From positions 1-59,746 of IMG/VR virus record IMGVR_UViG_3300030060_003581: a DNA stretch of 59,746 nucleotides; one strand, given 5' to 3'. Positions within the stretch are counted from its first letter, which is position 1. Every line of letters begins with the position of its first letter. The notes below the pieces were generated by a model. That model was not told the DNA's origin. It did not search any database and saw only the letters and a program-made list of their open reading frames with translations. Position numbers and translations under genes: made by a program. This DNA is from a virus. Its lineage: Duplodnaviria > Caudoviricetes. Positions 5,264 to 57,045 of this stretch are shown here, in pieces.

Positions 5264-5803
5264 TCAATCCACCGAACCTAAGTGAGCCAGCCTTGTCAAG
5301 TTCATAGTCGCTCGCTGGCGAAGGACATTAGACCTAACAGGGTCAGCACCCGAGGTGTGGAACGCTGATTCGTCTTCAAGATAAATAGAAGCCGCTAAGT
5401 CAGCGCATATCTCCTTTATGACATGAGCCATCTCGCCTTCTATCACCTTAGTTGCGGTATTATGGTCGTATGAAACTCCTGTCACTCCTGTTAGGTCATT
5501 ACTACTTTTTCCCGACCACTTAAACGAATCGCCATCAATGCTGCCGTTGCCAGCAGTTGAGAATGAAGAAGCGTCAGCAAGTGTAATTGTAGTTGCGCCT
5601 GTTGTAATAGCGCCGTTTAGAGTTGATTCTGCTATATCTGAGGATGGGGCGCTGCGACCATAGTTTCTAAACTCTTGGTCTATTGATATACTTGCCCTTC
5701 TAATCGCACTTGAAATGCGAGTAGCGGCTCTATCACGCTGACCGGAATCAAGTCCTAGCCTAATAGAAACATCAGAAGCCTCACAGTATCCCATCTTAAC
5801 CAC
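5264..5803 (-). CDS. Head-tail connector protein with inserted beta-domain
   Basis: YCEASDVSIRLG N-terminus and IKEICADLAASI helix typical of gp6/gp15-like adaptors. Confidence 0.6.
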   Translation of the reverse strand: MVKMGYCEASDVSIRLGLDSGQRDRAATRISSAIRRASISIDQEFRNYGRSAPSSDIAESTLNGAITTGATTITLADASSFSTAGNGSIDGDSFKWSGKSSNDLTGVTGVSYDHNTATKVIEGEMAHVIKEICADLAASIYLEDESAFHTSGADPVRSNVLRQRATMNLTRLAHLGSVD

Positions 5804-5804
5804 C

Positions 5805-6011
5805 TTACAAAATTAAACTACCTACATCAACACCGAAGGATGCCGCAATAAAGATAATTAGGATTCGCACACTACCATGTAGTTTAGCAAGCGATACCAT
5901 CATCTCCGTTTGAGCCTCCCCCATCTTTTCTAATAATTCCTCATGCTTGTCTATGCGCTTTTCAATATTATCGAGGCGCACTCCATGAGTAGTTCTTGAC
6001 ATACCAATCAC
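5805..6011 (-). CDS. Coiled-coil plus C-terminal TM protein (XhlA/holin-like)
   Basis: RLDNIEKRIDKHEE coiled coil followed by a hydrophobic C-terminus. Confidence 0.55.
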   Translation of the reverse strand: MIGMSRTTHGVRLDNIEKRIDKHEELLEKMGEAQTEMMVSLAKLHGSVRILIIFIAASFGVDVGSLIL

Positions 6012-6184
6012 TCCAACTTTTCAGTAACTTCATCAACAACTTCTTTAATGTCGTCAACTATGTCATCTAGTTCGTCAAGAGTTATCTTGCCATCGTCAAG
6101 ATAGTATTTTTTGTATAGTCTGTATGCCGCAGTAGCGACTATTCCCGCTACACCAACATATAATGCCACTGTTGTTATATCCAT
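6008..6184 (-). CDS. Small N-terminal TM protein (58 aa), holin-like
   Basis: Not in track; translated by eye MDITTVALYVGVAGIVATAAYRLYKKYYLDDGKITLDE...; GGTGA RBS. Confidence 0.6.
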   Translation of the reverse strand: MDITTVALYVGVAGIVATAAYRLYKKYYLDDGKITLDELDDIVDDIKEVVDEVTEKLE

Positions 6185-6352
6185 TTATTCATCACCTTTG
6201 TATTCTATTTGTTTTACTGCCGAGGTCGGTATAAAAGTAAAGGGCTTGCTCTCGCCTACCCTATATACTGCGTAACCATAGTCTGTCTTTTCAATGTTCA
6301 CATTGGTATAACACCTTTCGGGAGGAATATATACTATTTTTCCTAAGCGCAT
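6185..6352 (-). CDS. Hypothetical 55-aa protein
   Basis: Not in track; MRLGKIVYIPPERCYTNVNIEKTDYG...; abuts the next gene. Confidence 0.5.
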   Translation of the reverse strand: MRLGKIVYIPPERCYTNVNIEKTDYGYAVYRVGESKPFTFIPTSAVKQIEYKGDE

Positions 6353-22200: not shown

Positions 22201-24753
22201 ATGGACAAGGAGATGCAAAATATGTATGCAGCAAACGGAACAGGCGACAGTGTGGTAGGACTACTTCCACTTCTATGGGTATTCATGCTCATGGCAGCGG
22301 TAGTCATTACCATCACTAGAAACAGAATGAATAGACAGATGACAAAGCGTATCGGCTTAGAACTTGAAGTTATCAAGCAAGCACATGCCCGAGAAAGCCC
22401 AAATCAAAAACTTGCTACTTGGCTTGAAATCAAGGGCAAGGAATGGCGACAAATGCAAAAGGAATCATCCTTATTGCATAAACTCAAAGTTCGCTTCATG
22501 GGATACACCCATGAGGTAATTAGTGGCACTAAAATCGTCACTGATTCGTCACTAAATAGTGGCGGCATTGAGATAGTATCACCACCTTTGGAGGGCAATA
22601 ATGCTGATGAATGGATAGACCAAATAGCCTACGGGCTGAAAGGTGTTGCCAATGTTGACTCGTCAACGGGACTTCACCTTCATATTGGACTTAGAGCCCC
22701 GAGTAATAATTGGAGTTCGCATGAATCAGATATTCTAGGGTTAACGGAAGGTAGCGAATACCGTCATGGCTTTTACTTAGCCAAAGCGGTTCTAGGTGCG
22801 ACATTGTTGACCGTTGCTCTATGGCAGCCGGTCTATAACCGAATGGTGGCTAAGTCACGACGAAACGGTCAGTGGAGTCGTGATGTATCCTTCATCCTAG
22901 GCAAATCATTTGTCTCAAGATACTTCCATGAACACAAGGAAAACGGCTACGATGCGGATAAACATGTTCGCTTCCTAAACAAAGTCGCAGACTACTTCAT
23001 TGGAAATGGAGATAGATATTATTGCGTTAATTCGCAAGCCTTTGAGCGATATGGAACCATTGAGTTCCGCAGCCATCAAGGCACAACCAATGCTCGCAAA
23101 ATCAAGGGCTGGGTTGATATGCACTATTTGTTAGTTCAACGATGCACAAATGAGTCGTGGTTAGACATTTTAGACTATAACCATGAATCAATCACAGACT
23201 TCTTTGGGTTCTTAGGAGTGTCACCATCAGACGACCTGTTTAGGCAGCAAGTCAGAAGGATTCGCAAACTAAACCCAAACAATCTCAATACAGTGTTTCA
23301 GCATGACCCACAACTAGGACTAGAACATCTATTCCAACACAGTGATTCATGCTCGGTATGCAAGTCAACAACTTGCGACCACGATGATGAATGCGGTTCT
23401 AAACCAAGTGTCAAACTTGGCAATCAAATCGCAAGGCATTTCGTCCAAAGTCGTCACATGAACTGTGATAACTGTGGTGAATACTCACTGCGAGATATAG
23501 AGCGAGGCGGATATGACATAGATTGGTATGACAATCATGCCGATGCTTACTGTCCGTCGTGTGATACTATACGGTCATTCTCAATGTCAACTACTTGGCT
23601 TGGTGGACTGTTCTTGTCACTAATGTTTGGTATCAGCCCAATGCTACTACTTACGGTAGGGTGTGGGATTGGTGCTATTCATGTAGCAAGGCGAAAGTTC
23701 CGAGAGCGAAACCTAGCAACCAAGTTGCTTAGGGCACTTCAAGTGAGAGGCGGCCAAGCCGCTGGATATGCCTTCAACAAAGGCAAGCAAGTCTTCTATC
23801 TGAAAATGGCAAGACCTGCTTCCTATGTAGCAAACAAAATCCGAAAGGACATTACTCCCAAGGAAACAAATTGGTGGCTCGGTCACACAAGGTTCGCTAC
23901 TCATGGAGCAAACAATGACAAGAATGCACACCCACATTTTAGTCGTGAAGTGGATATAACCCTAGTTCACAACGGGGTAGTTCACAACCACGACGATGTG
24001 TGGAAGGCACTCGGCCAAGAGCCAACCGGCGAGGTTGATTCACAGGCCGTAGCACAGTGCTTACAGGTCGGTGGCATCGAGGAAGTTGTCAAACACTGCG
24101 AAGGGTCAATGTCACTCATATGGCATGACAAACGCAGCGGAGAAGGCACTCTGAAATGTTGGACTAACGGTGGAAATCCATTAGTCATGGGTCGAATAGA
24201 CGATAGCAAGACGGGTGCGGTAGTAATCGCATCAACTGAGGCTATACTCAAGCAAGCCGTCGGCAAGCGACTCAAGACCTCATGGGATGCTACCATAGGC
24301 CGTGAATACACAATCCAAGCAGATGGAACGATAACCAAGCGTGACATTGAGGGTAGTGAAGCAACGGCTGGTATCACATACGATTGGAGGACATACACAT
24401 ATCTCCCCAAGAAGACAGTTACCAAAGGTGGCAAGCAAACTCCCGTCAAGAAGCAATCAAAACCGAAGCCGGTTAGGAAATACAAGCCTAGGCCGCCAAG
24501 GTGGGTTGTTGACCAAGCCAAGTCCGACTTAGAACTTGGCGAAATGGGCTTCCCAAGCCGAGCCGGTTATCACGGCTATGACGCCAAGAAGCACATGGGA
24601 GTTCGTCCCGATGGTGGCATGTATGACCTACCACAATATCTGAACCCATACGCATATGCGGATGACCTAGTGGAAGTCCTTCGGGGCGACCATGAGGGAT
24701 TCGTAGCGACCAATTGGGATTCATGCGAGTGGCGTGACTACTACATCAACTGA
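22201..24753 (+). CDS. Membrane-anchored amidoligase (COOH-NH2 ligase type) fused to class II glutamine amidotransferase
   Basis: IGLELE, DSSL, EIVSPPL, GLHLHIG, RYYCVN, TIEFRSHQGT amidoligase motifs; Zn-finger Cys pairs; TM segments; CGIG, RG..AAG, GHTRFATHG, NAHPH, HNG, DS GATase-II motifs. Confidence 0.85.
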   Translation: MDKEMQNMYAANGTGDSVVGLLPLLWVFMLMAAVVITITRNRMNRQMTKRIGLELEVIKQAHARESPNQKLATWLEIKGKEWRQMQKESSLLHKLKVRFMGYTHEVISGTKIVTDSSLNSGGIEIVSPPLEGNNADEWIDQIAYGLKGVANVDSSTGLHLHIGLRAPSNNWSSHESDILGLTEGSEYRHGFYLAKAVLGATLLTVALWQPVYNRMVAKSRRNGQWSRDVSFILGKSFVSRYFHEHKENGYDADKHVRFLNKVADYFIGNGDRYYCVNSQAFERYGTIEFRSHQGTTNARKIKGWVDMHYLLVQRCTNESWLDILDYNHESITDFFGFLGVSPSDDLFRQQVRRIRKLNPNNLNTVFQHDPQLGLEHLFQHSDSCSVCKSTTCDHDDECGSKPSVKLGNQIARHFVQSRHMNCDNCGEYSLRDIERGGYDIDWYDNHADAYCPSCDTIRSFSMSTTWLGGLFLSLMFGISPMLLLTVGCGIGAIHVARRKFRERNLATKLLRALQVRGGQAAGYAFNKGKQVFYLKMARPASYVANKIRKDITPKETNWWLGHTRFATHGANNDKNAHPHFSREVDITLVHNGVVHNHDDVWKALGQEPTGEVDSQAVAQCLQVGGIEEVVKHCEGSMSLIWHDKRSGEGTLKCWTNGGNPLVMGRIDDSKTGAVVIASTEAILKQAVGKRLKTSWDATIGREYTIQADGTITKRDIEGSEATAGITYDWRTYTYLPKKTVTKGGKQTPVKKQSKPKPVRKYKPRPPRWVVDQAKSDLELGEMGFPSRAGYHGYDAKKHMGVRPDGGMYDLPQYLNPYAYADDLVEVLRGDHEGFVATNWDSCEWRDYYIN

Positions 24754-33425: not shown

Positions 33426-34179
33426 ACCGGCCATCATACCTTTGAAGCACATTGAATACACCATCACACACCCATACACCCGCAATCATAGAGGGGAGTG
33501 GGTGCAAAAGCCTTACATTGTAATAAAAGGTAGGTATAAAACCTACACTTTGTTAGGAAAAAAGGTGATGTGGTCGTATTTTGATGCACTTTTCAGTAAA
33601 GAACCGCTGCCAAGGCAGGCCGTCAATGACGACATATTCTCTCCCGAGATTGACTCTCCATCGTTGTTTAGTTTGCTAGACGACTTTACAAGCGAGAGCA
33701 TATCCGAAGGGACTGAATACTTGATAGCATACCATGTTGATGGTGACATTACTTATGTCGAGCCATTTGACCAAGGGCTTGTGACCGATATAGAAATGAT
33801 GTATCATTATCTAAAGAGTGAGGGATTGACTCCCGAGAAAAAACCATTCTTGTATAGGGGCAACAATGCGTCTATCAGACCATCAGTTTGTTTTCAATAC
33901 AATGATTGGGACATTTACTTTGTTGACATAGGCACTCGCTGGTATATACGAGGCGAAGGCTTGGCGTCAACAGGCAGAAGAATAGGGCTAACTATGCCCG
34001 AGAGTATTCTCAAGTCAAAGAAGAATGATGTAGCGAATGCTTTCAAAAGATTATTGTCTTATGCTGATAGCGTCAGACCAAATAAATTACATTGGCCTGC
34101 GACCGCACCACGATTACCAAGTGGACTCAAGACGCATGAGCAAGACCGATTATTAGTAAATAGGAGGTCGAATATATAA
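33397..34179 (+). CDS. Hypothetical protein (260 aa)
   Basis: Long ORF; the likely start is MLGEPA after GGAGG. Confidence 0.7.
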   Translation: MLGGIRMLGEPAIIPLKHIEYTITHPYTRNHRGEWVQKPYIVIKGRYKTYTLLGKKVMWSYFDALFSKEPLPRQAVNDDIFSPEIDSPSLFSLLDDFTSESISEGTEYLIAYHVDGDITYVEPFDQGLVTDIEMMYHYLKSEGLTPEKKPFLYRGNNASIRPSVCFQYNDWDIYFVDIGTRWYIRGEGLASTGRRIGLTMPESILKSKKNDVANAFKRLLSYADSVRPNKLHWPATAPRLPSGLKTHEQDRLLVNRRSNI

Positions 34180-34184
34180 TACTT

Positions 34185-34430
34185 ATCGTATTAAGTTAAT
34201 TAAGTTTAGAACTTCAAACTTAAAAAAAAGCAATACGGAATGCTACAACCGCTAATTAAGTTATTATGTCTAATATGTTTATCATTAGGCCACTAATACT
34301 ACTTAGTTATATTATAGTTATATTATTAAATTAATAACTTAATAGACTAAAAAACTTAATTCAGCATATCGGGATTCAGTAAAGCGTTTATTTAAGTTAC
34401 AGAATCTAAACTTAATGAACTTAATTCGGT
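34185..34430. other. Candidate replication origin
   Basis: AT-rich intergenic region with 9 TTAAGTT/AACTTAA heptamers, upstream of the replication cluster. Confidence 0.6.
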
Positions 34431-34435
34431 AACTG

Positions 34436-34450
34436 TTAAATACTGACGAG
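34436..34450 (+). promoter_or_regulatory. Middle promoter motif (TATA plus CTGACGAG)
   Basis: TTAAATACTGACGAG; copies at 39548, 44220 and 46502. Confidence 0.7.
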
Positions 34451-34467
34451 GGATTGGTGATAATTAC

Positions 34468-35280
34468 ATGAGAACAAACAAAGGAACAATTGACCTATAT
34501 CATGCTGAACCGCTACCAAGTGTTGACAAAGTAATCGTATTCGCAGAAAACGAGTTCGGTCTTGCATCACTGATGGCAGTTAGGACTGTTATAGGAGAGC
34601 GAGAGCCGGATGCAATAGCATTGAGTCATCTATTACCTGAAATGGGATTCAATTCAGCACCCGACATGAAACCTATTGGCTGGGAAATACACTTTGAAAA
34701 GACCAATGACGAAACCATAGCATATGTTACGGTTACTAATTGGCCTACGATACAGTTATTCCCACCGGAACAAACCAAAAATACATGGATATACACATAT
34801 CCGCCTGTTAGAGATTTTGTTGAGTTGATGAAAGACAATGGTGCAAAGGAGTTACTATACATCTCAAGCACTACTATACATGAGGCGTTGAACCCCGAAG
34901 TGTTTGAGTTGCTTTCTCCAAAAAAGGTAAAGAGTTATGTGTTTGGTAGCGATAAAAACACTAAGCATAATCTATTCTTTACTCCGCCAACATGGTTATT
35001 CCCATACTTGGCACACTGTATGAACTATGAACACAGTGAGATTATACTATCGGGTTGTGAGAATGGTGCTGAAATAGACGAACAGGCAGGCTGGACTTTG
35101 ACTAAGTATCTGTCATCAGTGATTGGTGAAAAAATCAAGAAGCCTCTATACAATAGAGTCGTAAAACAATTACGCAAGGAGGCTGAAAGAATTGCTGAAC
35201 TAGAGTCCGAAGTAACCGAGGCTCTAAAGAAGCACGAAGAACGGGCAGGTAGCAAGCCAGCAGAACATATGTGGGGCTGA
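34468..35280 (+). CDS. PAC2/PbaB-like proteasome assembly chaperone/activator (candidate)
   Basis: Size, GLASLMAVRTV helix, GAKELLYISS, EIDEQAG..L..VIG, C-terminal coiled coil ending in MWG (HbYX-like). Confidence 0.5.
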   Translation: MRTNKGTIDLYHAEPLPSVDKVIVFAENEFGLASLMAVRTVIGEREPDAIALSHLLPEMGFNSAPDMKPIGWEIHFEKTNDETIAYVTVTNWPTIQLFPPEQTKNTWIYTYPPVRDFVELMKDNGAKELLYISSTTIHEALNPEVFELLSPKKVKSYVFGSDKNTKHNLFFTPPTWLFPYLAHCMNYEHSEIILSGCENGAEIDEQAGWTLTKYLSSVIGEKIKKPLYNRVVKQLRKEAERIAELESEVTEALKKHEERAGSKPAEHMWG

Positions 35281-35284
35281 TAAA

Positions 35285-36571
35285 ATGAATATCTTTGAAA
35301 CTATGAGAACTTATGTGAACAGAAATCACTATGTTGATGTTGATGATAAGATACCTGTGTTCCTATGCTCAATAGGCACACACATTTTCAACGGCCTAAA
35401 CAAGTGCGGAACTTGTCCTTTCATACCGACGGGAGAAGAAGGTGCGTTTGCCATAGACTCTTGTATTCTAAGGCACGATAAAGCGCCTCTATACACCCCT
35501 ATGAGCCACATAGCAGACACTAGGCTACATATCCTCATGCGAGGTATGAAAGGCTCGGGAAAGTCCGTTCTAATCAATTTATTTTTAGCGCCCGGAACGG
35601 GGTTACTAAACAATCCATTGAATGCTGACATAGGTATGGCTTTTAGAACTGACATTGGCGCTAACTCTATTACAGAAGCAGGTATGTTTGGGTCTGTAAA
35701 TGAAGAAGGTGAAATCATGGGCAGACCTTTAGCAAGGGAAATGTGTGGTGGCTTCTTGGGCTTCGAGGAGTTTTCATCACTTGTTGATGCTGGCAGAAAA
35801 GACCACAGTATAGACATGACTAATCAACTTCTAACAAGCACAGATAATGGTCGAGTTAGAAAGGCTATGAGAGCAGGTTGGGTTCAATACACAACACGCT
35901 TTACTCTATGGGCTGGGACTCAGCCCGGTCGTTTCGAGATGGAGTCCGGTATGGATAGAAGGTTCTTCATTATTGATATTAACATGAACCCCAAGAAGGA
36001 GATGCAATTTAAGAAGGCACAGGCTAAACAGGCTAGCATGACTAACGCTGAAAGGGCTGAGTTGGCTGGGCTGGCTATTGAGATTAAAGACTTCTTTACC
36101 GAGAGGACTATGGAAGTTATTATGAATCCGCCAACCGGAGTTAGATTTGACGAGGCACTAAACGAGTGGCTTTACAAGCCCGAAGTTCGTAGTCACGAAG
36201 CCGACCTGTTCCGAAGGTTGGCTTTGGGATATACAATTATGTCGCCCGACTACGAAGGAGGCGACTTATTGTTTGTCAAAATGACTGATGAACTACGCCA
36301 AATCTTAGACTCTAGTTTGGAAATGAGGCGTGGTGTGATGGAGTCTGACATAAACCTAATCAAGACTGCGTTTTGGAACACTGAACTAACACGCACTGCT
36401 CTTATCAAAGAAGTAGCAAGGATGATTACTCCCGGAGACTACCAAGCGGCTAAGCGTTGGGTTGAAGATAATCTTTTAATACAGGCGTGGTATAGTGAAG
36501 AACGCAGTAGCGCAAGCGGTCGAGGCCGCAGGGGCGTTAAGGTATTTATCGGATATAAGGAGGATGATTAA
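35285..36571 (+). CDS. mcm: MCM-family AAA+ helicase lacking the N-terminal domain
   Basis: HILMRGMKGSGKS Walker A, SITEAGMFGSV, GGFLGFEEF Walker B, AGTQP sensor, SGMDRRF Arg finger. Confidence 0.75.
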   Translation: MNIFETMRTYVNRNHYVDVDDKIPVFLCSIGTHIFNGLNKCGTCPFIPTGEEGAFAIDSCILRHDKAPLYTPMSHIADTRLHILMRGMKGSGKSVLINLFLAPGTGLLNNPLNADIGMAFRTDIGANSITEAGMFGSVNEEGEIMGRPLAREMCGGFLGFEEFSSLVDAGRKDHSIDMTNQLLTSTDNGRVRKAMRAGWVQYTTRFTLWAGTQPGRFEMESGMDRRFFIIDINMNPKKEMQFKKAQAKQASMTNAERAELAGLAIEIKDFFTERTMEVIMNPPTGVRFDEALNEWLYKPEVRSHEADLFRRLALGYTIMSPDYEGGDLLFVKMTDELRQILDSSLEMRRGVMESDINLIKTAFWNTELTRTALIKEVARMITPGDYQAAKRWVEDNLLIQAWYSEERSSASGRGRRGVKVFIGYKEDD

Positions 36572-40510: not shown

Positions 40511-41725
40511 GTGAGAAAAATGGATTTAGACCAAATGATAACCCGTATAAGCAAGAATGTAGGAACGACAGAAGAAGCACTACGCTCTCGTATGGAGACT
40601 GTGTTAGCGGAGAACCGCAACACATGGCTAGATGCTGGTAAAAGTGAGGATGATTGTAACTTAAATGCACTCAGAATCTCCGGCAGACAGATTAAGAGCG
40701 AAGGCGAAAGACTAAAGCGAAGTGGCGCTACACTGTATGAAGGAATGTTCGTAAGTGTCCCGAGATACAAAGATTGGGCAGACCTAGCATACAAAAAAGC
40801 CGCTGGCACTATTAGTCAAGGTAACGAAACTGTTATCGAAACACTGATTGAAGAAGGTAATGTAATTCTTTATGAGGATAATAACGATGGCACTTTTACC
40901 AAGAAGTATAATCCTTCATTGGCACAGAAGGCTGATTTCCAAAGTGGAATGGCCGAGACTGAAATCAGTGAACTACCAAAGCACACATATGATGCTGGCA
41001 ACGGCATTCACTTCCACTTGGTATGGGATAAGAACAACCCTAAGTTCCCGTCGGGGGATGACAATTGGAAATATGGTAAGCCACGACCACTGAGCGAAAA
41101 GGACAGGACTTGTATGTTCTTAGGCAGAACACAGGGCAGCAAAGATGACATGAGAGTTATTTCTATGAGGTTCAATGGTGCGCTAGCGGAGACACAATTC
41201 CCTGCTTTCGTAGCCGGAACTATACCTATGAGACCAGCAAGGAACGCTGACTTAGCATATGGTAAGGCTGGCGTGTCTGTGTTCAACCGTGACGATACTG
41301 TTCAAAGTTCTTTCAGTAGTGCGCCCGATGCACTAATCGCTGGACTAGACCAAATCAAGACTCTTGAGAATGGATTACAAGACATTGAAGCGTATGTAGG
41401 CTCACTGTCTGACAAGGAACGCTGGGATGCTTTGGCTGCTGCAATAGTCGAGGTAATTCACATAGACCCTAGAGACAATGGTGGTTATATCATTACCACA
41501 GGCGACCTAGATATTATGTCAACTGCTGGCACTGTTGACATTTATGTTCCGGCTCAACAAGAATCACTTGTTGACTTCTCAGTTGGTAGCACACTAATGC
41601 TAGTAGGCTCTCCATACATGAGTCGTGACGGTGAGGCAAAACTAGCAGTAACAGGCTGGTGGTGCGCTGAATCTTTAGTTGCATCAGCACCGGAGACTTC
41701 TAACGACGACGGAGGGTGGGACTGA
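40511..41725 (+). CDS. RPA-like single-stranded DNA-binding protein (OB folds)
   Basis: N-terminal helical domain as in archaeal RPA, C-terminal OB-like strands, acidic tail; replication context. Confidence 0.5.
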   Translation: MRKMDLDQMITRISKNVGTTEEALRSRMETVLAENRNTWLDAGKSEDDCNLNALRISGRQIKSEGERLKRSGATLYEGMFVSVPRYKDWADLAYKKAAGTISQGNETVIETLIEEGNVILYEDNNDGTFTKKYNPSLAQKADFQSGMAETEISELPKHTYDAGNGIHFHLVWDKNNPKFPSGDDNWKYGKPRPLSEKDRTCMFLGRTQGSKDDMRVISMRFNGALAETQFPAFVAGTIPMRPARNADLAYGKAGVSVFNRDDTVQSSFSSAPDALIAGLDQIKTLENGLQDIEAYVGSLSDKERWDALAAAIVEVIHIDPRDNGGYIITTGDLDIMSTAGTVDIYVPAQQESLVDFSVGSTLMLVGSPYMSRDGEAKLAVTGWWCAESLVASAPETSNDDGGWD

Positions 41726-46857: not shown

Positions 46858-47172
46858 ATGGCACGAATACTTATTACATGCTTTTGCGAGGATTCTGAGG
46901 TAATTTCAGAAGCACTGAGCAAATATGGCAGAAGAGATGTATACTTGGCAATTGACAACACACCAGCGAATCGCTATAAGGCAGAAGCGTTGGGAATTGA
47001 CAGTGGCCTAAACCTTGTTGGGCTCGATGCAGACCATGACTTATATGATGAAGTATTGGAATGTAAAAAGGTCTCTAAGACTACCCCTAAACCTAAAAAA
47101 GAGAAAAGGCCAAAGAAGCCTGCTCCTCTTGACAAGGAAATAGAGGCGGTAGTTGATGAAGAAACCGAGTAA
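46858..47172 (+). CDS. Hypothetical protein
   Basis: ORF with AGGTGG RBS. Confidence 0.6.
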   Translation: MARILITCFCEDSEVISEALSKYGRRDVYLAIDNTPANRYKAEALGIDSGLNLVGLDADHDLYDEVLECKKVSKTTPKPKKEKRPKKPAPLDKEIEAVVDEETE

Positions 47173-48118
47173 ATACTCAAAGGAATGGTATGCACAGGAG
47201 GGGGCTAATCACGGCCACCCTAACCCGATAAAGGCAGCAAATGGCAAATGGCCTGTTCGTTTATCTAAGTCGGCATTTATGACTTACTTATCCTGTCCTC
47301 GCAAGTATTGGTGGAACAATGTTGCGGAGATAAGAGCGCCTAGGAATCACTTTATGGTTCACGGAACTGCGGTTCATACTGCGCTAGAAAATCTGTATGG
47401 TAATTGGAAAGACGAAGATGGCGAGTGGTTTGAAGACTTGGCTTTGTGGGATTGGGAAGACAATACTAAAATACACAGGCCGTATTTAGAATGGAACCAA
47501 GACCAACAAAATATTTACTTTGATTCTGTCGAGGCACTGATGCAGTTAGAGGCTGAGCGTCTAAATCGTTGGGGCAAAGAGCATTTTGCCCCTGTTGAGT
47601 TTGAAGTCAAACATACTGTCCGTCATCCCGACTCTAACTTCTTGTTAGTAGGTATGATTGATGGCGTCCACAGACACCCCGACGGCGGCCTTGTTATCAC
47701 TGAATTGAAGACAGGTAAGGCTACCAAAGGTAAGTTGACTAAAACACGCAAGGAACTGTGTTTCTATCGCCATATGCTATCGTTATTGGGTCAAGACGAA
47801 GCACTATACTTTTACTACTTGTTCCCCGAATGCAGTAATACTGATTTATACTTAGAATTAGAAGGCAAAAAGGATACTGAGGTTTGGCTTGGTGATAAGC
47901 AAGGTATGGCGGTGCTTGAGAAGGTATCTAAGCGTTCAGTTAGTGCCATGCACAAGTCCTTAGACAAGGCTATTGACGGTATTAACGACAGTCTTTGGAA
48001 TATGAAGTGGAATGATTGGTTTTGTAATGAATGGTGTGAGTTCAATATGTCTTGTGAAGGAGAACTCATAGGTCTTGATTCTGACCCAACACATTCATAT
48101 ACTGAAGTGTGGAAGTGA
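47153..48118 (+). CDS. Cas4-like PD-(D/E)XK exonuclease with Fe-S cysteines
   Basis: SCPRKYW, GTAVH, GMIDG, ELKTG, C..WC...SC. Confidence 0.85.
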   Translation: MMKKPSKYSKEWYAQEGANHGHPNPIKAANGKWPVRLSKSAFMTYLSCPRKYWWNNVAEIRAPRNHFMVHGTAVHTALENLYGNWKDEDGEWFEDLALWDWEDNTKIHRPYLEWNQDQQNIYFDSVEALMQLEAERLNRWGKEHFAPVEFEVKHTVRHPDSNFLLVGMIDGVHRHPDGGLVITELKTGKATKGKLTKTRKELCFYRHMLSLLGQDEALYFYYLFPECSNTDLYLELEGKKDTEVWLGDKQGMAVLEKVSKRSVSAMHKSLDKAIDGINDSLWNMKWNDWFCNEWCEFNMSCEGELIGLDSDPTHSYTEVWK

Positions 48119-49321: not shown

Positions 49322-50050
49322 ATGCTAGTAGTTGATGACCGAGAGAACGACCTTTTGATTCACAAACTCTATGCTTCTATGGGCAATCACGATGATGGCG
49401 GCCATGTTAAAGTAAAGCGGCTACAATCCGCAGATTACATCATAGGTAACATAGGAATAGAGGCCAAAGAGATAAATGACTTGTATCACTCTATTATGGG
49501 TCACGGTCGCTCTCGGACTATTGTAGGGCAACTGATGGACTTACAGGAAAACTTTGAGCGACCTATGCTTGTAGTTTATGGAACTCAATTAAAACCTTAC
49601 ATTCCCGGGGGCAGACCTAACCGACAACAAATGGCGAGAGAGATAAAGAAGATGAACGCAGTAATCAAAAAGTTCAAGCAGAATCTAATTATACAATTCC
49701 CAAATATACAATACATGGAACTGTCAAGCATGGATGACATGGTTGATTGGCTTTCGTCTGTGCATCACAATTTAAGAATCCGAAGGATGCCTGTCGCAGA
49801 ACCGAGAGAGAAGACAAAAAGTTCCAATAGGAAAATTGATTTGCGAGTTAGAGTCTTGTCATCCATAGAAGGAATATCCGAGAGAGCCGCACATGACTTG
49901 TTAACCGAGTTTGGCTCAATTCCACGCTTGTTGCGCTCTCGCACAAGCCAGCGAAAACTCATGGAGATAGACGGCATAGGGCGCAAAAGAGCCAAGGCTA
50001 TTCTATCCCTGCGTGAACGCTATCCCGACCAGCCCGAACCAAAAGACTAA
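49322..50050 (+). CDS. ERCC4/XPF-family nuclease with C-terminal HhH repeats
   Basis: VDDRE, ADY, IEAKE, IEGISE and IDGIGRKRA. Confidence 0.85.
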   Translation: MLVVDDRENDLLIHKLYASMGNHDDGGHVKVKRLQSADYIIGNIGIEAKEINDLYHSIMGHGRSRTIVGQLMDLQENFERPMLVVYGTQLKPYIPGGRPNRQQMAREIKKMNAVIKKFKQNLIIQFPNIQYMELSSMDDMVDWLSSVHHNLRIRRMPVAEPREKTKSSNRKIDLRVRVLSSIEGISERAAHDLLTEFGSIPRLLRSRTSQRKLMEIDGIGRKRAKAILSLRERYPDQPEPKD

Positions 50051-53000
50051 CGCCCATAGGTCATACTGCCCGATTGACTTGAACCCGATACGGATTGGGT
50101 GTCAAATGCTATTTCTATCGTGTGTAATGTAAGCGCAGTGTATTGAGCAGTGTCGGGTGAAACACCTGCGGCACGACCAAAAGACACTTGTATGGTGTTG
50201 CCGGTGTTGTTAGCGCCGATAATAGGCTCAGCAAACAATATGGCTTGCACATTAGTTCCTTCTGCCAAAGTAACTGTTTTCGTTATTGAATGACCGGTTT
50301 CACGGCAACTTACTGTTACATCTAACGATGCCACTTGTCCCGACGGGCAAGGCAAAGAGTATAGACTTGACACAGTTACCTTTCTCCCTCTTGGGTTAGA
50401 AGGAACTCTAATGCTTGTAGTGGACTCGTTGTATGCGTTTGTTGCGTCAGTAGCGCCAGCAAACGACACACCTGTTGTTGAGAACATACAGTCACCGGAC
50501 GAAGTAGTAGTAAAGGTATCAGTTCCCGATTCGGGGTCATCGTTTGTTGGTGCATCTGACGGCTTCTTTTGACCTAAAACATTGAACCCTCCGCCTGTAA
50601 CGCTATCATTGTTAAAGTCCATCGAACCCTTTATTCTTTTAGTAAAGTTACTATTGAGGATATTGCTACCTAAAGCAAAGGCAGAACTGTCGTTAAGAGC
50701 AGTTCCTCCAACCTTAAATGCCCCGCTTGTTACGGGGTCGTATCTGCTACCTGCGGTTGTGCCGCTATTTATGGAGGCCACACCGGCTACTCGACCAAAG
50801 CCACCGTTAGAAGGATTACCACCATATTTGTCATTGTTATATCCCTGTGCCCCCTGTTCACCGGGTTTGAAGTTACCGCCTCCGGGGAATGTCTTGCCAC
50901 CGCTACCAGCGTTAGGCGGTAGGAACAGTGCGGCAAAGTGTTGAATATTTCTATTTACATCACGCTCAAGAGTAAATGATACTTGCTCATTTTGTCTTGC
51001 ACTTTGAGACCATTTGATAGATTTTATGAACATAGGTTCTCGAGTCAAACCCATTGAAAGGTCACTGTAACTTACCTGCGTAGCAGGCACGAAGTTTATG
51101 TCATCACAAATATGCAAACGAGGCGCATACCATTCTGCTCTTGTGTTAAAATAAGATGGCTGAGCGCCTTCCGAGTATGGGAATGCCGTTTGGTTTTTGG
51201 GAGTAAAGTCACCAACACCTAACGGGAATAAACTCTCGGACTGAACAACGCTGTAACCGGAATCACCTACATAGTTGCACCTATTCCTTAAATTATTAGT
51301 GCCACATCTATTCTTTGCTACTGCTAACAAATAGTCGTAATTTACAGACAGAATAATTCTTTCACTACCGTCCCTAAGCGACCAATAAGAACTAGGTATG
51401 TCTATCTCATAGAATCCGTTAGCATCCACCGTTACTTTAGTTGAACTTACCGCACTATGAGGAACTCGTCCTTCGGCGTTAGGGTTGCCTTTCCATAGAT
51501 AATCTATTAGTTTAATAGTAAAAACAGGGTTAATTGCATTAGCAGGGTATTCCTCAATACTATCACCATCTCCTACTTCTATTACCATTCTTAAATTGCC
51601 ATCAAAAACATAACCTGTGCCGCTTGCGTTGTCTGCGCCGGATTGAGGATTGTCAGTTATTTTAGGCATATTTCGTGGTATGTGGACTACTTGCACTGCA
51701 TATGATAGTGACCGAGAGCCATACCAATAATAACCCTCATCATAATCGTCAGACCCGCCCCCTAAATATGCGGCGGTCTTTGTTGATTGTCCCGAGCCTT
51801 TTACATCTAAAGCAGACACCATTCCGGGGAATGGGTTGCCCCCAAACAAAGAAGCCCAAGCCCACCCTTTGTCGGTAACATCTGACCCAACCCCACTGTT
51901 AGAATATGGTATAGTTTGTGACCCGTCAGCGACATATCCAAATCTTGCACCTTCGAGCATAAGAGTCTTGTCGCCATACAGATTGTTGGCGCTTTGATTG
52001 TCACTAAATCTTGTTATTTGAGCCTCGACTTGCAGTGGCGCTTGTTTGGTCTTTTCGTATTCTGCCTTAGCGATTGCTAAAGCCTCGGCTTTAGTTCCTA
52101 CTTCGGGCATACTAAGTATATTCCATTTAGGAGTTGAGTTTAATGAAGGGGTAGGGTAGTCAATAAATAGACCAGCCCCGCCATAAAATACTCTAACATT
52201 GGTAAATTGTTTTACTGCTTGTGTCTTAATAGAAGATACTCTTAGATTACCTTCATCAAACATAGTGTTTATATCATATGTGGGTCTAAACGATGGACGA
52301 CCATCCCTGCCCATAATCCAACAGAACATTTGACGCTGACCGTATTTATCACTTGTTCCAGCCAAACCTTGTGTGCTTGAGTATATTGCCCCAAGTGTGC
52401 TATTCCTACAATCATTTACACCACCAAAGTCGTCAACAGTCTGCGCTTCTCTCCACCTACCAAAAATACCACTACTACCCGTAGGAGTGATTGCGTTTAG
52501 TGCAGTAAATGTGCTACTTGTTTTAGCAGTAACAGTAAAGTCCTTAGTTTTGCCCATAAGACCTAACTCATCACAATCTATCACTGTTACTATGTCGCCT
52601 ACCACTAAGTTATGTGGCTTATTAGAACTAAATACTGAACTGCCTCCGCTTGGAGTAGTTATGCCTGTAATAAGACCACTGTATGTCAACGCATCTTTTT
52701 GCGTAGTAGTCATGTTTTTGCTAACAGGTATTGTTGCTATATTTGGAATACCGTAGGCTTTTGCTTGCTTTAACCAAGTCTCGGCTAGTATGTCGGAATA
52801 AGCGCATCTAAACTTATCACTATCATACCAAGTGCCGCTTGCTTTATTTTCAATAAACCCGTTCAAAGACATAATTAATCTCATAGGGAATATATTAGCA
52901 AGACCGCCATAAACTATGGCATCAGAATAACTATTCTCAGCATCCGGGTCTATTTCAATATTAATATGTGATTTATTGTCGTATGCAGGTATAGTTCCCC

Positions 53001-56000
53001 TGCCGCCAAAGTATGTCAAGAACCAAGCGTCGTATCTATTTGGTGTGCTTGATGTAATAGAAGTGCTTGGTGGAGTTGCCCCATAACCTGTTCCATCCCA
53101 CTGCCCATCAGTAGTAGTTGCAGGCACAGGAACACCTAAATTAACTGCGTTTCTAAGGTATAGCGTTCCCGGTGCTTTTACAGTGCAAGTTCCCGAACCA
53201 ATTGTAGTGGCTGGGTTATCTAAAACAATATCCAAAGTAGTAGTTTGAGCATAAGGAGTGGCGAGGCTCGCAGGGTTTTGACTTGCTATCCTATACACAC
53301 CGTCAATCGAAGGGGTAGTAGTTGAGCCACTAATTTCTATCATGTGGCCTGTCCTATATAGCATTCCTATACTTGCCGCCCCTCCCGAACTCTCACTTAA
53401 AGTAACTCGACCAGCACCATTAGCAACGGCTGAAACTCCTGTTCGGCCTGTGGTTTGCAGGGTTGCTTGTTGGGTGGGTGACGCATACGCCGCATAGTGA
53501 AATACAGTTTTTTGTGACTCGGATATTATTTGACCTACATGAAGGTCAGTAGTTTGCAGAACTGCCGGATTATCAAACTGTATAACCCTATCATCAACTT
53601 TTAAGTCCGTAACCAAAACAGTTGTGTCATTAATAAAATACCAAAAGTTAGCGTTCCAACTTGCCTCATCGTCTAAGTTTCTATATGTTGCTGGGGCTTT
53701 AGTCCAATAATTATCAATCATAACAGGGAATCCTTCGGTTTCAACTAAATAGTCTCCTATTTCCCTTCGCCCTCCCGAGGATTGGAATGTCCTACCGCCA
53801 TTAGTCGCAGTGTTCAGATTAAAGAACTTAGATGTGTCAACAATAACAAACGACCCTGCTTTATCCTCCCAATTATGATACTTGTTATTGGATTCACTGT
53901 TAGACCCACCCGAAACCGCAGACCAAGCAACTCCTGTGATTGGGTCAACTTCTGCATCAATCTCCCAAAGGTCAACTTCTTCTCCTATATTCAAATCCGT
54001 AAAGGTGCTTCTTTCGTTAACCGTTGAAATTGCATCATCAGCAATTCCTAAAGACATTTGATAGTTGCCGGAGTATGGTGTCATTAGACCAAACTTATTC
54101 TTTCTAAGCCCAGCATCAGCATCAGCATTACCATCGTTACGCATATCAGCCCAAAGAATCCATATATGCTTGTAGTCCTCGGTGTCTAAATCTCTAAGCC
54201 TAAACTTACTACCGCTTGCGTGGTTGCGTTGGAAAAAGTTAGTTTCGGGTATTGTTAAAACAGTGTTGCCTGCTTTCAAAGTAACATTACTGTAATGGTC
54301 TTGTATAGCATAGTCGGTAGGGACATTAGCATAACTCGAGTTATTGTATAATTCGTGGTAAGTAGCGAAAGGCGTTTCAATTAATGTGGGCTGACTTGTC
54401 TGTGTGACCGCAGTTGACCCCCAAAGAGTAGGCGTGTCCCACCATGCTCTATAACTAGCCATCCCAAAGGCTCCGGTAGCCCCCTTATACTTGATTAGGG
54501 TATACACCCAATAATCAACTCCATTTATATTTTCCTCTTGTGCGGTTTTGGTTCGAGTAGCGCCTATATAGCCGTTGTTTATCAACGCCCATCTGCCATT
54601 TGTAAAGTAACTTGGCAAACCGCCGCCGCTAAGACCAACAAGATTCTCTCCATTCAAAGAAGTTACTAATAAATCTGTATAGTTAGCAGAAGCAGATTTA
54701 GGAACATAGAACTGCATCAAATAAAACATACTTCCCCTACTGAGACCATGAGAAGGGTTAAAGTTAGCAACCGTTCCGTAGTTTGAAGCATTTTTGCCCC
54801 CTCCCGCCAACATTCGACACTGATGAACTCTTAACAAACAAGTGCTACCTATGCTAGTTGATGTGCTTATTCCATCATACACTCCCGCATCAACAAATCC
54901 GTCATCATCAACAAACTCAATGACTCCCTCCCCTTGGGTATCAAAGTCGGGAAAGTAACTATTTAGGCTCATAGTAGTGTCGCCTATGTCAAAATCTGAG
55001 TTTATTTCACACTTATTAGTTTTGTAGCGACTATTAAGTTCCGTAACGCTTAGTGGCGATGATTTTATTTTTGAGAATAAGAACTTAAACCACAGGGACT
55101 TTGAAATATCCTTTATCCATCTGCTATGAATAGCCCTGTGTGCCGCATCTGCGGTAGCGTGACCTGCGGTTATAGCATCATCCCAATCATCATAGGCGTC
55201 ATTTGGCCCCACATCGTCTTCTCCTAAATACATTTGAATAGGATGAGCAGACCTGTTACGCATTCTGCTATCTAAGTGATTTTTGAATACACCCGAGCCA
55301 TCTTCAACTTCGTTAAAGCCTAATCCTTGATTAGCACTCGTTAGAATACTTGCTCCGAAGTTATACATATTTAGTTCGTTTTGTGCCTCGCTTCTGTCAT
55401 ACGCTACTCGCTCAGTAGCGTCTCCCTCTCCATTTTGCCCAAACTCCCAAACAGGCATTTGATTATCTATTTCACTGAAAAAGTCAGATGCACTTAACTT
55501 AATAGTGGGTGTTCTCGATGAAGATTGATTGACATAAGACATAGAATCAATCATCCCTCGCCATATTGGTCTATCAATACTGTTTCTAAACATTAACAAA
55601 CTCCAATCAGCATATGCACTGCCATTAAATAATGACATTATTTTTACATAAGCATTTAACTCGCTATCGTCATCTATTATGGTAAGGTCAACTTTTGAGG
55701 GAGTATTTACTGACGCAGAATATGAAAAGTCTAATGTAGGTGGCATATCGGTAACTGACGGGGAGGGATGGTCGTTTAGAGGCTTAATTAGACCTACTCT
55801 ATCAATTAATACTGATGCCTTGGCTCCGTGCGCCTTTACAGATATAGCCCAACCATACATGTCAGCCGCAGTGAATTGAGTTCCGTCTGCTTTGTTACCT
55901 ATGGCGTTGCTTGTTGATACTGTCGCCCCATTTTTTATTATATCATACACTCCCGCAGTGTAGTTGAAAATAAAATCATAATCATCCCACATATCGTATG

Positions 56001-57045
56001 CTGATTGGTCACTCCAACTTATAGCGGTAGTTGCCGCAGTAGGGTATGCAGATGGAGTTATTTCGTATTCTGCGGCAAAATTAGCATAAGTCGAGTCTGT
56101 GGTATCTGTGCTACTCCAAGCCGTTCCCTCGCCACCAATTGATAACTTTACTCTCCCGTTAGTATTGTCAATTGCTAACGGACATATTCTTATTGTAAAA
56201 ACATCTAAATCGCTTTTGCTATTTAGTGCGCCATCATAAACAAGAGTTGGTCTGTAAGTAGTGCCGCTATCAAATACTTCTTGTATTAAGAAGGGCTTGC
56301 CGGAGGGTGACTTTATTTCCTTCATCCAAGCATAAGGGACATTATCTAAGTCGGTAGTATCAGTTATCTCTCCTGTATAAAATCCAGCCAAATTAGTCCT
56401 TATTGTGTATGCGGGAGTTGATAAAATATTACTGCTTGCATCAAGAGGTAGCCCAGCCTTATTGTATATTGATGCCGAAGTGGGTTGAAGCCTACTGTTG
56501 ACACCTATCTTAGCCCTACCAAAAGAGCCGTCATTTATGCCTATTCCGGCATAATATTTACCCCCTGTGTTGTAACCGTTACAAAACAACATATATCCTT
56601 CTTTTGGCGCATAGTCGCTATCCGTAGTAGTAGTTTTATACGCTTGACCTAACAAACCCAATCCTGTATCGTAGCGTTGCCTGTTAGCGTTCATTAGTGA
56701 GTCGGGGTAGGATAATTGAGCCAACCCATTCCACTTACCGACATAATCTCTGTTTTCGTCAAGGGATGCCCATTCGCTAATACCTTTGTTGAATATGTGT
56801 TGTATGTCAGAAGATACTGAGGAATTGTTAAATCTGCCCGATGCACCGTTACCACGCTCAACCCATGCGTATTTGTAACGGGGATTGAGTGGCGCTAAAC
56901 CTGTAAAGGGGTTGCCATGATGAGTGCTTGATGAGAGCCAAAATCCTCCCGGTGTATTTTTGTCGTCTGCGAGCGTAGTAGCGCCCATGAAGTCGTCATA
57001 ATATCCGGCTAACCAAAAGGTATATTTTCTATCAACTTGTCTCAT
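50047..57045 (-). CDS. Giant tail tip/baseplate-adhesin protein (2332 aa)
   Basis: Directly downstream of the tape measure gene; beta-rich; hub-like segments (IWRGMID, FTNVRVFYG). Confidence 0.7.
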   Translation of the reverse strand: MRQVDRKYTFWLAGYYDDFMGATTLADDKNTPGGFWLSSSTHHGNPFTGLAPLNPRYKYAWVERGNGASGRFNNSSVSSDIQHIFNKGISEWASLDENRDYVGKWNGLAQLSYPDSLMNANRQRYDTGLGLLGQAYKTTTTDSDYAPKEGYMLFCNGYNTGGKYYAGIGINDGSFGRAKIGVNSRLQPTSASIYNKAGLPLDASSNILSTPAYTIRTNLAGFYTGEITDTTDLDNVPYAWMKEIKSPSGKPFLIQEVFDSGTTYRPTLVYDGALNSKSDLDVFTIRICPLAIDNTNGRVKLSIGGEGTAWSSTDTTDSTYANFAAEYEITPSAYPTAATTAISWSDQSAYDMWDDYDFIFNYTAGVYDIIKNGATVSTSNAIGNKADGTQFTAADMYGWAISVKAHGAKASVLIDRVGLIKPLNDHPSPSVTDMPPTLDFSYSASVNTPSKVDLTIIDDDSELNAYVKIMSLFNGSAYADWSLLMFRNSIDRPIWRGMIDSMSYVNQSSSRTPTIKLSASDFFSEIDNQMPVWEFGQNGEGDATERVAYDRSEAQNELNMYNFGASILTSANQGLGFNEVEDGSGVFKNHLDSRMRNRSAHPIQMYLGEDDVGPNDAYDDWDDAITAGHATADAAHRAIHSRWIKDISKSLWFKFLFSKIKSSPLSVTELNSRYKTNKCEINSDFDIGDTTMSLNSYFPDFDTQGEGVIEFVDDDGFVDAGVYDGISTSTSIGSTCLLRVHQCRMLAGGGKNASNYGTVANFNPSHGLSRGSMFYLMQFYVPKSASANYTDLLVTSLNGENLVGLSGGGLPSYFTNGRWALINNGYIGATRTKTAQEENINGVDYWVYTLIKYKGATGAFGMASYRAWWDTPTLWGSTAVTQTSQPTLIETPFATYHELYNNSSYANVPTDYAIQDHYSNVTLKAGNTVLTIPETNFFQRNHASGSKFRLRDLDTEDYKHIWILWADMRNDGNADADAGLRKNKFGLMTPYSGNYQMSLGIADDAISTVNERSTFTDLNIGEEVDLWEIDAEVDPITGVAWSAVSGGSNSESNNKYHNWEDKAGSFVIVDTSKFFNLNTATNGGRTFQSSGGRREIGDYLVETEGFPVMIDNYWTKAPATYRNLDDEASWNANFWYFINDTTVLVTDLKVDDRVIQFDNPAVLQTTDLHVGQIISESQKTVFHYAAYASPTQQATLQTTGRTGVSAVANGAGRVTLSESSGGAASIGMLYRTGHMIEISGSTTTPSIDGVYRIASQNPASLATPYAQTTTLDIVLDNPATTIGSGTCTVKAPGTLYLRNAVNLGVPVPATTTDGQWDGTGYGATPPSTSITSSTPNRYDAWFLTYFGGRGTIPAYDNKSHINIEIDPDAENSYSDAIVYGGLANIFPMRLIMSLNGFIENKASGTWYDSDKFRCAYSDILAETWLKQAKAYGIPNIATIPVSKNMTTTQKDALTYSGLITGITTPSGGSSVFSSNKPHNLVVGDIVTVIDCDELGLMGKTKDFTVTAKTSSTFTALNAITPTGSSGIFGRWREAQTVDDFGGVNDCRNSTLGAIYSSTQGLAGTSDKYGQRQMFCWIMGRDGRPSFRPTYDINTMFDEGNLRVSSIKTQAVKQFTNVRVFYGGAGLFIDYPTPSLNSTPKWNILSMPEVGTKAEALAIAKAEYEKTKQAPLQVEAQITRFSDNQSANNLYGDKTLMLEGARFGYVADGSQTIPYSNSGVGSDVTDKGWAWASLFGGNPFPGMVSALDVKGSGQSTKTAAYLGGGSDDYDEGYYWYGSRSLSYAVQVVHIPRNMPKITDNPQSGADNASGTGYVFDGNLRMVIEVGDGDSIEEYPANAINPVFTIKLIDYLWKGNPNAEGRVPHSAVSSTKVTVDANGFYEIDIPSSYWSLRDGSERIILSVNYDYLLAVAKNRCGTNNLRNRCNYVGDSGYSVVQSESLFPLGVGDFTPKNQTAFPYSEGAQPSYFNTRAEWYAPRLHICDDINFVPATQVSYSDLSMGLTREPMFIKSIKWSQSARQNEQVSFTLERDVNRNIQHFAALFLPPNAGSGGKTFPGGGNFKPGEQGAQGYNNDKYGGNPSNGGFGRVAGVASINSGTTAGSRYDPVTSGAFKVGGTALNDSSAFALGSNILNSNFTKRIKGSMDFNNDSVTGGGFNVLGQKKPSDAPTNDDPESGTDTFTTTSSGDCMFSTTGVSFAGATDATNAYNESTTSIRVPSNPRGRKVTVSSLYSLPCPSGQVASLDVTVSCRETGHSITKTVTLAEGTNVQAILFAEPIIGANNTGNTIQVSFGRAAGVSPDTAQYTALTLHTIEIAFDTQSVSGSSQSGSMTYGR

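Follow-up and report, generated by a model that had tools for sequence, protein, structure and literature searches.

A 270-residue protein encoded by a tailed virus is predicted to adopt the PAC2 fold, with the archaeal protein PbaB as its closest structural relative, and it carries a conserved Met-Trp-Gly tail that resembles the tail of a PAC2 paralogue in its probable host, a member of the Poseidoniales. The virus may thus tamper with the protein-degradation machine of the cell it infects. The gene lies in a stretch of 59,746 bases, here called the window, that spans the whole of the virus record IMGVR_UViG_3300030060_003581 and represents a complete or near-complete virus (CheckV 99%). Coordinates of the gene, of the parts of its protein and of the flanking features are collected in Table 1.

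Table 1 Features of the PAC2-like gene and its immediate surroundings in the window
Feature	Position	Strand	Basis
AT-rich spacer, 288 nt, 26% GC, carrying AACTTAAT words in inverted orientation around a tandem repeat	34180..34467		Word counts, repeats
GGTGA Shine-Dalgarno-like word, 7 nt 5' of the ATG	34456..34460	+	Read from sequence
Gene for a protein of predicted PAC2 (PbaA/PbaB) fold, 270 aa and stop, ATG start, ending ...AEHMWG	34468..35280	+	Model, fold matches, dN/dS
Predicted alpha-beta-alpha core domain, about residues 1-220, with a beta-hairpin at residues 71-90	34468..35127	+	Secondary structure of the model; VIA-align
Predicted long helix near the C terminus (residues 225-260), corresponding to the 'tentacle' helix alpha6 of PbaB	35140..35247	+	AlphaFold2 model; A2 profile alignment
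Predicted disordered tail, residues 261-270	35248..35277	+	pLDDT <50 for residues 262-270
Met-Trp-Gly, last three codons	35269-35277	+	Sequence
428-aa P-loop protein with N-terminal Cys/His cluster, weakly MCM-like	35285..36571	+	Foldseek, synteny

Predicted structure and family assignment

The gene had been marked in a first-pass annotation of the window as encoding 270 residues ending in ...EHMWG, and it is an exact ATG-started open reading frame on the plus strand. An AlphaFold2 model of its product, built on 15 homologues (mean pLDDT 78.6, pTM 0.79), exhibits a three-layer alpha-beta-alpha core, a beta-hairpin formed by strands 71-79 and 82-90, a 36-residue terminal helix (residues 225-260) and a disordered tail. 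The coiled coil and tail described in that annotation correspond to this helix and to the segment that is disordered from residue 262 onwards, and its assignment to the PAC2 family, made by eye, is upheld by the predicted structure, for which Foldseek, VIA-align and the ESM Atlas all indicate a PAC2 fold and which is closest to PbaB. Both the long C-terminal helix and the flexible tail of PbaB-type activators are present in the model, which is that of a monomer and does not reveal whether the helix would project from an oligomer. Comparison with two relatives (loci L001 and L002) gives a dN of roughly 0.10 against a dS of 0.69-0.77 (dN/dS about 0.1-0.15), and this low dN relative to dS indicates that the protein is under purifying selection.

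In a Foldseek search of the PDB, the top match is PbaB of P. furiosus (3vr0, E 6e-9), followed by PbaA, Rv2714, Rv2125, the Streptomyces PAC2 protein 3mnf, Ta1441 and human PAC1/PAC2 in 20S assembly intermediates, such that the top matches within the PAC2 family span E values from 6e-9 to 1e-4. VIA-align, which is independent of Foldseek and covered 48,161 chains, places PAC2-family structures at ranks 1-9 with Z values of 17.6 to 11.4. The first folds outside the family, the generic MTAN, Pth and PNP folds, appear from Z 9.1. VIA-align pairs model residues 6-244 with PbaB and residues 7-242 with PbaA. ESM Atlas feature matches are PF09754 clusters in 30/30 among the matches listed, all of them archaeal, and the structure match in the same resource has a TM of 0.65.

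These comparisons bear on whether the protein is simply a generic PNP/peptidyl-tRNA-hydrolase-like sandwich, that is, a non-PAC2 enzyme or binder whose tail is coincidental. The absence of a Pfam PAC2 match would agree with such a view, as would the fact that PNP, MTAN and Pth folds also match the model at Z 7-9. However, the PAC2-family structures holding the first nine ranks score 2-8 Z units higher, the ESM Atlas feature matches point uniformly to PAC2, and the alignment with PbaB extends into the PAC2-specific C-terminal helix. Furthermore, across 56 representative homologues (set A2) the only invariant residues are W107 and Y111, and no polar residue is invariant. We regard a generic sandwich as very improbable. 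The reading of the protein as an enzyme was rejected because no polar residue is invariant across this set.

The sequence link between the viral family and PAC2 proteins is modest. The Pfam PAC2 model (PF09754) matches neither the window protein (E up to 1) nor any of its 15 nearest homologues (set A1, E up to 1) or the 56 members of A2 (E up to 0.1), and a PF09754 search of the window DNA likewise gave no match; the gathering score of this model is 25.8 bits, and it yields 54-134 bits on host PAC2 genes. Single-sequence searches of Pfam, PHROGs, NCBIfam and PDB sequences returned weak coiled-coil noise alone and no name, and a tblastn search of 50,697 GenBank phage records with the viral protein found no match. 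When cellular genome contigs were searched with A1, 64 pattern stretches arose and 0 were confirmed, and thus a search of this sensitivity revealed no close cellular copy. Homologues of the protein reach down to 17% identity, and the named ones are all 'hypothetical protein' except for one 52-aa cluster fragment that bears an unrelated label.

Profile comparisons recover more of the relationship. The A2 profile, when run against PDB sequences, ranks PbaB first (E 0.013), with PbaA at E 1.5, and aligns the C-terminal helix region to PbaB residues 212-270. An hhalign comparison of a 114-sequence viral profile with 50-odd host PAC2 proteins yields an E value of 3e-5 and a probability of 73% over 203 colinear columns at roughly 13% identity. 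Against single classes of host PAC2 proteins (described below) the E values range from 3e-4 to 7e-2: the match to class 2 is weak (E 1e-3 to 7e-3, about 100 columns), and the body of the viral protein is slightly nearer to the PbaB-like class 3 (E 3e-4 over 216 columns). The viral protein is therefore slightly closer to PbaB than to PbaA and lies outside the PAC2 proteins that Pfam recognises. Given a clear PAC2 fold and a modest sequence link, we place it in the PAC2 structural family as a member that has diverged deeply.

Among known proteins, PbaB offers the nearest parallel, being the best structural match (Z 17.6 over 209 residues), of the same length class, and sharing the layout of core, beta-hairpin, long terminal helix and disordered tail that ends in a hydrophobic residue, an aromatic residue and any residue. 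The viral protein differs from it in being only about 12% identical and unrecognised by the Pfam PAC2 model, in carrying Trp where PbaB has Tyr, and in being encoded by a virus beside an MCM-like gene. The same fold occurs in the eukaryotic PAC1-PAC2 and Pba1-Pba2 chaperones (8qyj_J, Z 12.9; 4g4s_O, Z 11.4; 7ls6_P, Z 11.4), which dock on the alpha ring. Those proteins are heterodimers acting on heteroheptameric rings, and no sign of a partner subunit was found for the viral protein.

The C-terminal tail and the host proteasome

The host of the virus is probably a member of the Poseidoniales, an abundant group of ocean archaea which, on indirect evidence, viruses of this kind infect (PMC5434244). 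PF09754 is found in 41/41 sampled Poseidoniales genomes, 39 of which have three copies, and 57 host PAC2 proteins were extracted and divided into three classes by their tails. The 29 sequences of class 1, which is PbaA-like (E 3e-21), terminate in DPSVG, DPSFG or PM[IV]x. Class 2 (16 sequences) is also PbaA-like (E 5e-25) and ends in xMYG, MLYG or AMFG in 16/16 cases. Class 3 (12 sequences) is PbaB-like (E 4e-11), and its tails are mostly the canonical DFYV, AFYA and GFYA, with one ASYM. Across the Poseidoniales genomes listed (G001-G043), the tails of the three paralogues take the forms DPSVG/PMVY, [ML][YF]G and FYx. Many of these genomes have two PAC2 paralogues about 6-16 kb apart on the same contig (loci L129-L185), as at 5583-6197 and 15506-16180 of contig C21 in genome G003.

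The tail of the viral protein is strongly conserved among its relatives. An [ML]WG ending is present in 14/15 members of A1 (35-99% identity), and the single exception looks truncated. In A2, where identities fall as low as 17%, the penultimate residue is aromatic in 48/56 members and the ending conforms to [ML][WFY][GQ] in 38/56, the commonest tails being MWG (15), MFG (12) and LWG (7). The [ML]WG tail also ends the protein in all 23 of the closest testable loci (L193-L219; 65-98% identity in the neighbouring MCM-like protein), even as the residues preceding it vary. As a chance background, we used the 110 mechanical open reading frames in the window that are 80 aa or longer, of which 3 end in hydrophobic-[FYW]-x, the PAC2-like frame included, and 13 have a penultimate aromatic residue. 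Conservation of the tail exceeds this chance expectation.

Farther afield, the ending becomes specific to each clade, with distant clades ending in FYA, MFG or non-aromatic residues. Among 70 PAC2-like frames that lie beside MCM-like genes, the penultimate residue is aromatic in 36 (including FYA in 3, FYV in 1, MFG in 2, and EWE, DWE, EWI and DWI), an aromatic residue occupies position -3 in 12, and Phe is the C-terminal residue in 1. The remaining 21/70 have no aromatic residue among the last three and end in AGE, TGE, NQQ, NLQ, EMV and others, and so a docking tail may be dispensable for whatever core function the family has conserved. The distant genes (L221-L272) have such endings as GGFYA, GGYHI, GDFIP, HTAGE and GGNQQ, in which an aromatic residue is often immediately preceded by Gly-Gly or by acidic residues. 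Within the window itself, a penultimate Trp also occurs in the frames at 40511-41725 (...DDGGWD) and 47153-48118 (a PD-(D/E)XK nuclease, ...YTEVWK), probably by chance.

A comparison of the two sets of tails reveals that the viral [ML]WG ending mirrors the [ML][YF]G ending of host class 2, with Trp in place of Tyr or Phe. The correspondence extends to subtypes, in that viral xMWG, MLWG and VMFG parallel host xMYG, MLYG and AMFG, respectively. Class 2 proteins, which are related to P. furiosus PbaA (3wz2), share with the viral protein the PAC2 fold (Z 16.0 to 3wz2) and the [ML]-aromatic-Gly tail in both its xM-aromatic-G and ML-aromatic-G subtypes; they differ in using Tyr or Phe where the viral clade of the window uses Trp. 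The viral tail therefore matches a PbaA-like paralogue of the host and not the PbaB-like one. In a Nitrosopumilus genome and three other Thermoplasmatota genomes, PAC2 proteins end in YMYA, ASFI, RIYG, GMYM, GYIG and RFKN, of which YMYA, RIYG and GMYM are HbYX-like tails from outside the Poseidoniales. Set beside these tails of other archaea, the [ML]WG ending fits a Poseidoniales host without proving one.

Tails of this kind recall the HbYX motif, for which the available part of one study gives the pattern [LVIMGAPFYW][FY]x, with Phe accepted besides Tyr (Forouzan et al., PMC3493965). The Met-Trp-Gly of the window protein falls outside this published definition, which allows Tyr or Phe alone; the A2 tails that conform are MFG (12), MYG (1), MYQ (1) and MFQ (1), and among the 70 frames beside MCM-like genes FYA (3), FYV (1) and MFG (2) conform as well. 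The same portion of that study reports HbYX-type tails in about 4% of proteins (63/1484 in T. acidophilum) and stronger activation by Tyr than by Phe at the penultimate position (PMC3493965). From this preference for Tyr, a tail with Trp might bind without having the same effect on the gate. Our literature search, within the available parts of its sources, found no test of Trp at the penultimate position of HbYX. The HbYX-like tail proposed in the first-pass annotation thus stands insofar as the ending is conserved and resembles HbYX, and needs amending insofar as Trp lies outside [FY] and the host counterpart is PbaA-like rather than PbaB-like. Inspection by eye also spoke against the tail being a PIP-box (PCNA-binding) motif, as the Q-x-x-h-x-x-a-a spacing is absent, and this reading was rejected.

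The best single explanation for these observations is that the viral protein docks on the alpha ring of the host 20S proteasome, because it unites a PAC2 fold, a PbaB-like layout and a fixed, host-like ending of three residues; we place its likelihood a little short of even. By this mechanism, the C-terminal tail would insert into the pockets between host 20S alpha subunits, in the manner of PbaB and PbaA. The docked protein could then open the gate as an activator, or could compete with the Pba proteins and the AAA ATPases of the host by occupying their sites, and in either role host proteolysis would be re-programmed during infection. The exchange of Tyr or Phe for Trp may alter what happens at the gate.

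Proteasome alpha genes were recovered by a motif scan from a wide range of archaea, three Poseidoniales genomes among them. The host alpha subunits carry invariant Y8, D9, P17, G19, Y26 and K66, among them residues of these pockets. P17 and G19 are described as conserved pocket residues of the alpha subunit in the available part of the HbYX study (PMC3493965). A complex prediction that combined two Poseidoniales alpha subunits (A3) with viral residues 215-270 (A2) returned a score of 0.00, which speaks neither for nor against binding. In the accessible portion of the PbaB report, PbaB binds and activates the 20S proteasome through its HbYX tail only, and its alpha6 helices project like tentacles (PMC3605417).

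Rather than docking on the proteasome directly, the protein might act via the host Pba proteins, as a co-oligomer, by titrating a partner or as a dominant-negative subunit, or it might serve as a general holdase for viral proteins. It has the same fold as the host proteins, including the beta-hairpin by which PbaB is described to tetramerise, and activity of PbaA reportedly requires a further partner, both points being taken from the accessible portion of the same report (PMC3605417). The three host paralogues could, in addition, form hetero-complexes. However, the hhalign identity of about 13% between the viral family and host PAC2 proteins makes it unlikely that shared oligomer interfaces have been kept, and we consider this route decidedly unlikely.

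The MCM-like neighbour and the upstream spacer

A gap of 4 nt separates the stop codon of the PAC2-like gene from the ATG of the gene for the 428-aa protein. The latter protein is highly conserved, with 332 homologues of which the best 120 of 332 are at least 58% identical, and its N-terminal Cys/His cluster is invariant. Searches of Pfam, PHROG and NCBIfam gave no match for it. Foldseek rows are almost all MCM or ChlI, at E 4e-3 or worse and none at E 1e-3 or better, for an AlphaFold model with a mean pLDDT of 62.9 and a poor ATPase core. These weak MCM-like matches agree with the label 'MCM' given in magroviruses, as seen in the available portion of that report (PMC5434244). An earlier proposal that the PAC2-like gene stands first in a helicase transcription unit is plausible given the 288-nt AT-rich spacer and the 4-nt gap, but the term 'helicase' must be softened to weakly MCM-like.

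The pairing of the two genes is widespread. Through the MCM-like protein, 80 viral loci were retrieved, 75 of which have enough upstream DNA to be tested, and a PAC2-like frame lies directly upstream of the MCM-like gene in 70/75, with gaps of -14 to +21 nt. Overlap of 4 nt with the MCM-like start is frequent, as in the distant loci L221-L272, and the five misses may reflect the rule used to call open reading frames. In a further comparison, the PAC2-like gene is directly upstream of the MCM-like gene in 7/7 loci that reach far enough. All of these loci come from related viruses, and so the synteny and tail counts do not represent independent events.

The two neighbours change at different rates. 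Identity in the MCM-like protein is 59-98%, and the PAC2-like protein evolves faster, as exemplified by 28% versus 65% in locus L008 and 55% versus 84% in locus L003. This contrast between a fast PAC2-like tail and body and a conserved MCM-like protein suggests a pattern more typical of a host-facing protein.

The 288-nt spacer that precedes the gene is also distinctive. It contains 7 copies of AACTTAAT, of which the three leftmost are on the minus strand and the four rightmost on the plus strand. All fall within an imperfect inverted repeat of 69 nt (34173-34241 and 34374-34442) that flanks a central tandem repeat, TAGTTATATTA x2, at 34304-34325. The window as a whole has 13 copies of AACTTAAT versus 3.95 expected, and 13 copies were reached in 0/100 shuffles. 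Close relatives keep AACTTAAT, and in a group at 55% identity the spacer is equally long and again AT-rich but has different repeats. This region could be a promoter/operator or a replication origin.

The genomic setting raises the main rival to proteasome docking, in which an exapted PAC2 fold would act as an assembly chaperone or loader of the viral MCM-like helicase or replisome and the proteasome would not be its target. Coupled genes would yield both proteins at once, and the PAC2-like protein would hold helicase subunits, or put them together, at the neighbouring origin-like region. We judge this somewhat unlikely. Consistent with it are the position of the PAC2-like frame directly 5' of the MCM-like gene in most testable loci, the location of the gene inside the replication module right after a spacer with inverted repeats, and the family members that have no aromatic residue in the last three positions. 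Precedents can be drawn from the available parts of two reports, in which the C-terminal segments of PbaB confer a holdase activity that is independent of ATP (PMC3605417) and chaperonins of the magrovirus replicative cluster are proposed to aid replisome assembly (PMC5434244). However, a conserved MCM-like partner accompanied by a clade-varying tail and a fast PAC2-like body is not what would be predicted for a tail that docks on that partner, and in the clade of the window the tail copies that of a host proteasome chaperone. Moreover, we know of no PAC2 protein that acts on helicases, which also counts against this function, and a search for fused PAC2-MCM proteins or longer forms found none, although this is weak evidence.

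The two functions could also coexist. In such a case, a fold known only from chaperones and activators seated on the alpha ring of the proteasome would have become a dedicated helicase loader in a large group of marine archaeal viruses, encoded together with the helicase beside the replication origin, and the tail of some clades would additionally plug the complex into the host proteasome or shield the complex from it, a combination we consider unlikely. The magrovirus chaperonins (GroEL/thermosome) provide a partial analogy, in that they too are host-type proteostasis factors within a replication cluster of marine archaeal tailed viruses, as described in the available part of the magrovirus report (PMC5434244). 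They differ from the PAC2-like protein in having an unrelated fold and mechanism and in remaining close to their cellular homologues, in contrast to the extreme divergence of the PAC2-like gene.

Significance and wider gene content of the virus

Our literature search revealed no previous description of a viral PAC2 protein or of an archaeal-virus homologue of a proteasome chaperone or activator, and nothing linking magroviruses with the proteasome or archaeal viruses with PAC2 or proteasome assembly chaperones. The main texts of papers on Poseidoniales viruses, which form the part of these sources that was available, mention no such gene, and their supplementary gene tables could hold an annotation. 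Among catalogued viral proteins with a PAC2 fold, none is named: the confident matches in BFVD are two viral models only, both of them unnamed members of the same viral family.

If the tail docks on the host 20S proteasome, this protein would offer a first handle on the interplay between viruses and the proteasome in archaea, and its use of Trp for Tyr would amount to an experiment by nature on the HbYX code. Should the viral helicase be what the protein serves, the PAC2 fold would have acquired a new role. In both cases, an unnamed family (70 PAC2-like frames, from 75 testable of 80 loci) gains a structural assignment and a testable function.

The window has the gene content of a tailed virus with archaeal-style replication. 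Its morphogenesis arm encodes a terminase, a portal and a tail tube. The replication module encodes an RFC-like AAA+ protein, a family-B DNA polymerase, a PD-(D/E)XK nuclease and an ERCC4/XPF nuclease, all from genes downstream of the PAC2-like gene. The nearest relatives of the polymerase are those of haloarchaeal tailed viruses, at roughly 24% identity. Adjoining this module on the minus strand are two giant frames, one at 50047-57045 (2332 aa) and one at 57056-59746 (at least 896 aa) that runs past the end of the record.

Elsewhere in the window, positions 22201-24753 encode an 850-aa protein, possibly linked to protein tagging and degradation, with an Amidoligase_2 domain (PF12224, E 3e-11) and class-II glutamine amidotransferase domains (E 4e-16). 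Amidoligases of this kind have been proposed to attach peptide or amino-acid tags.
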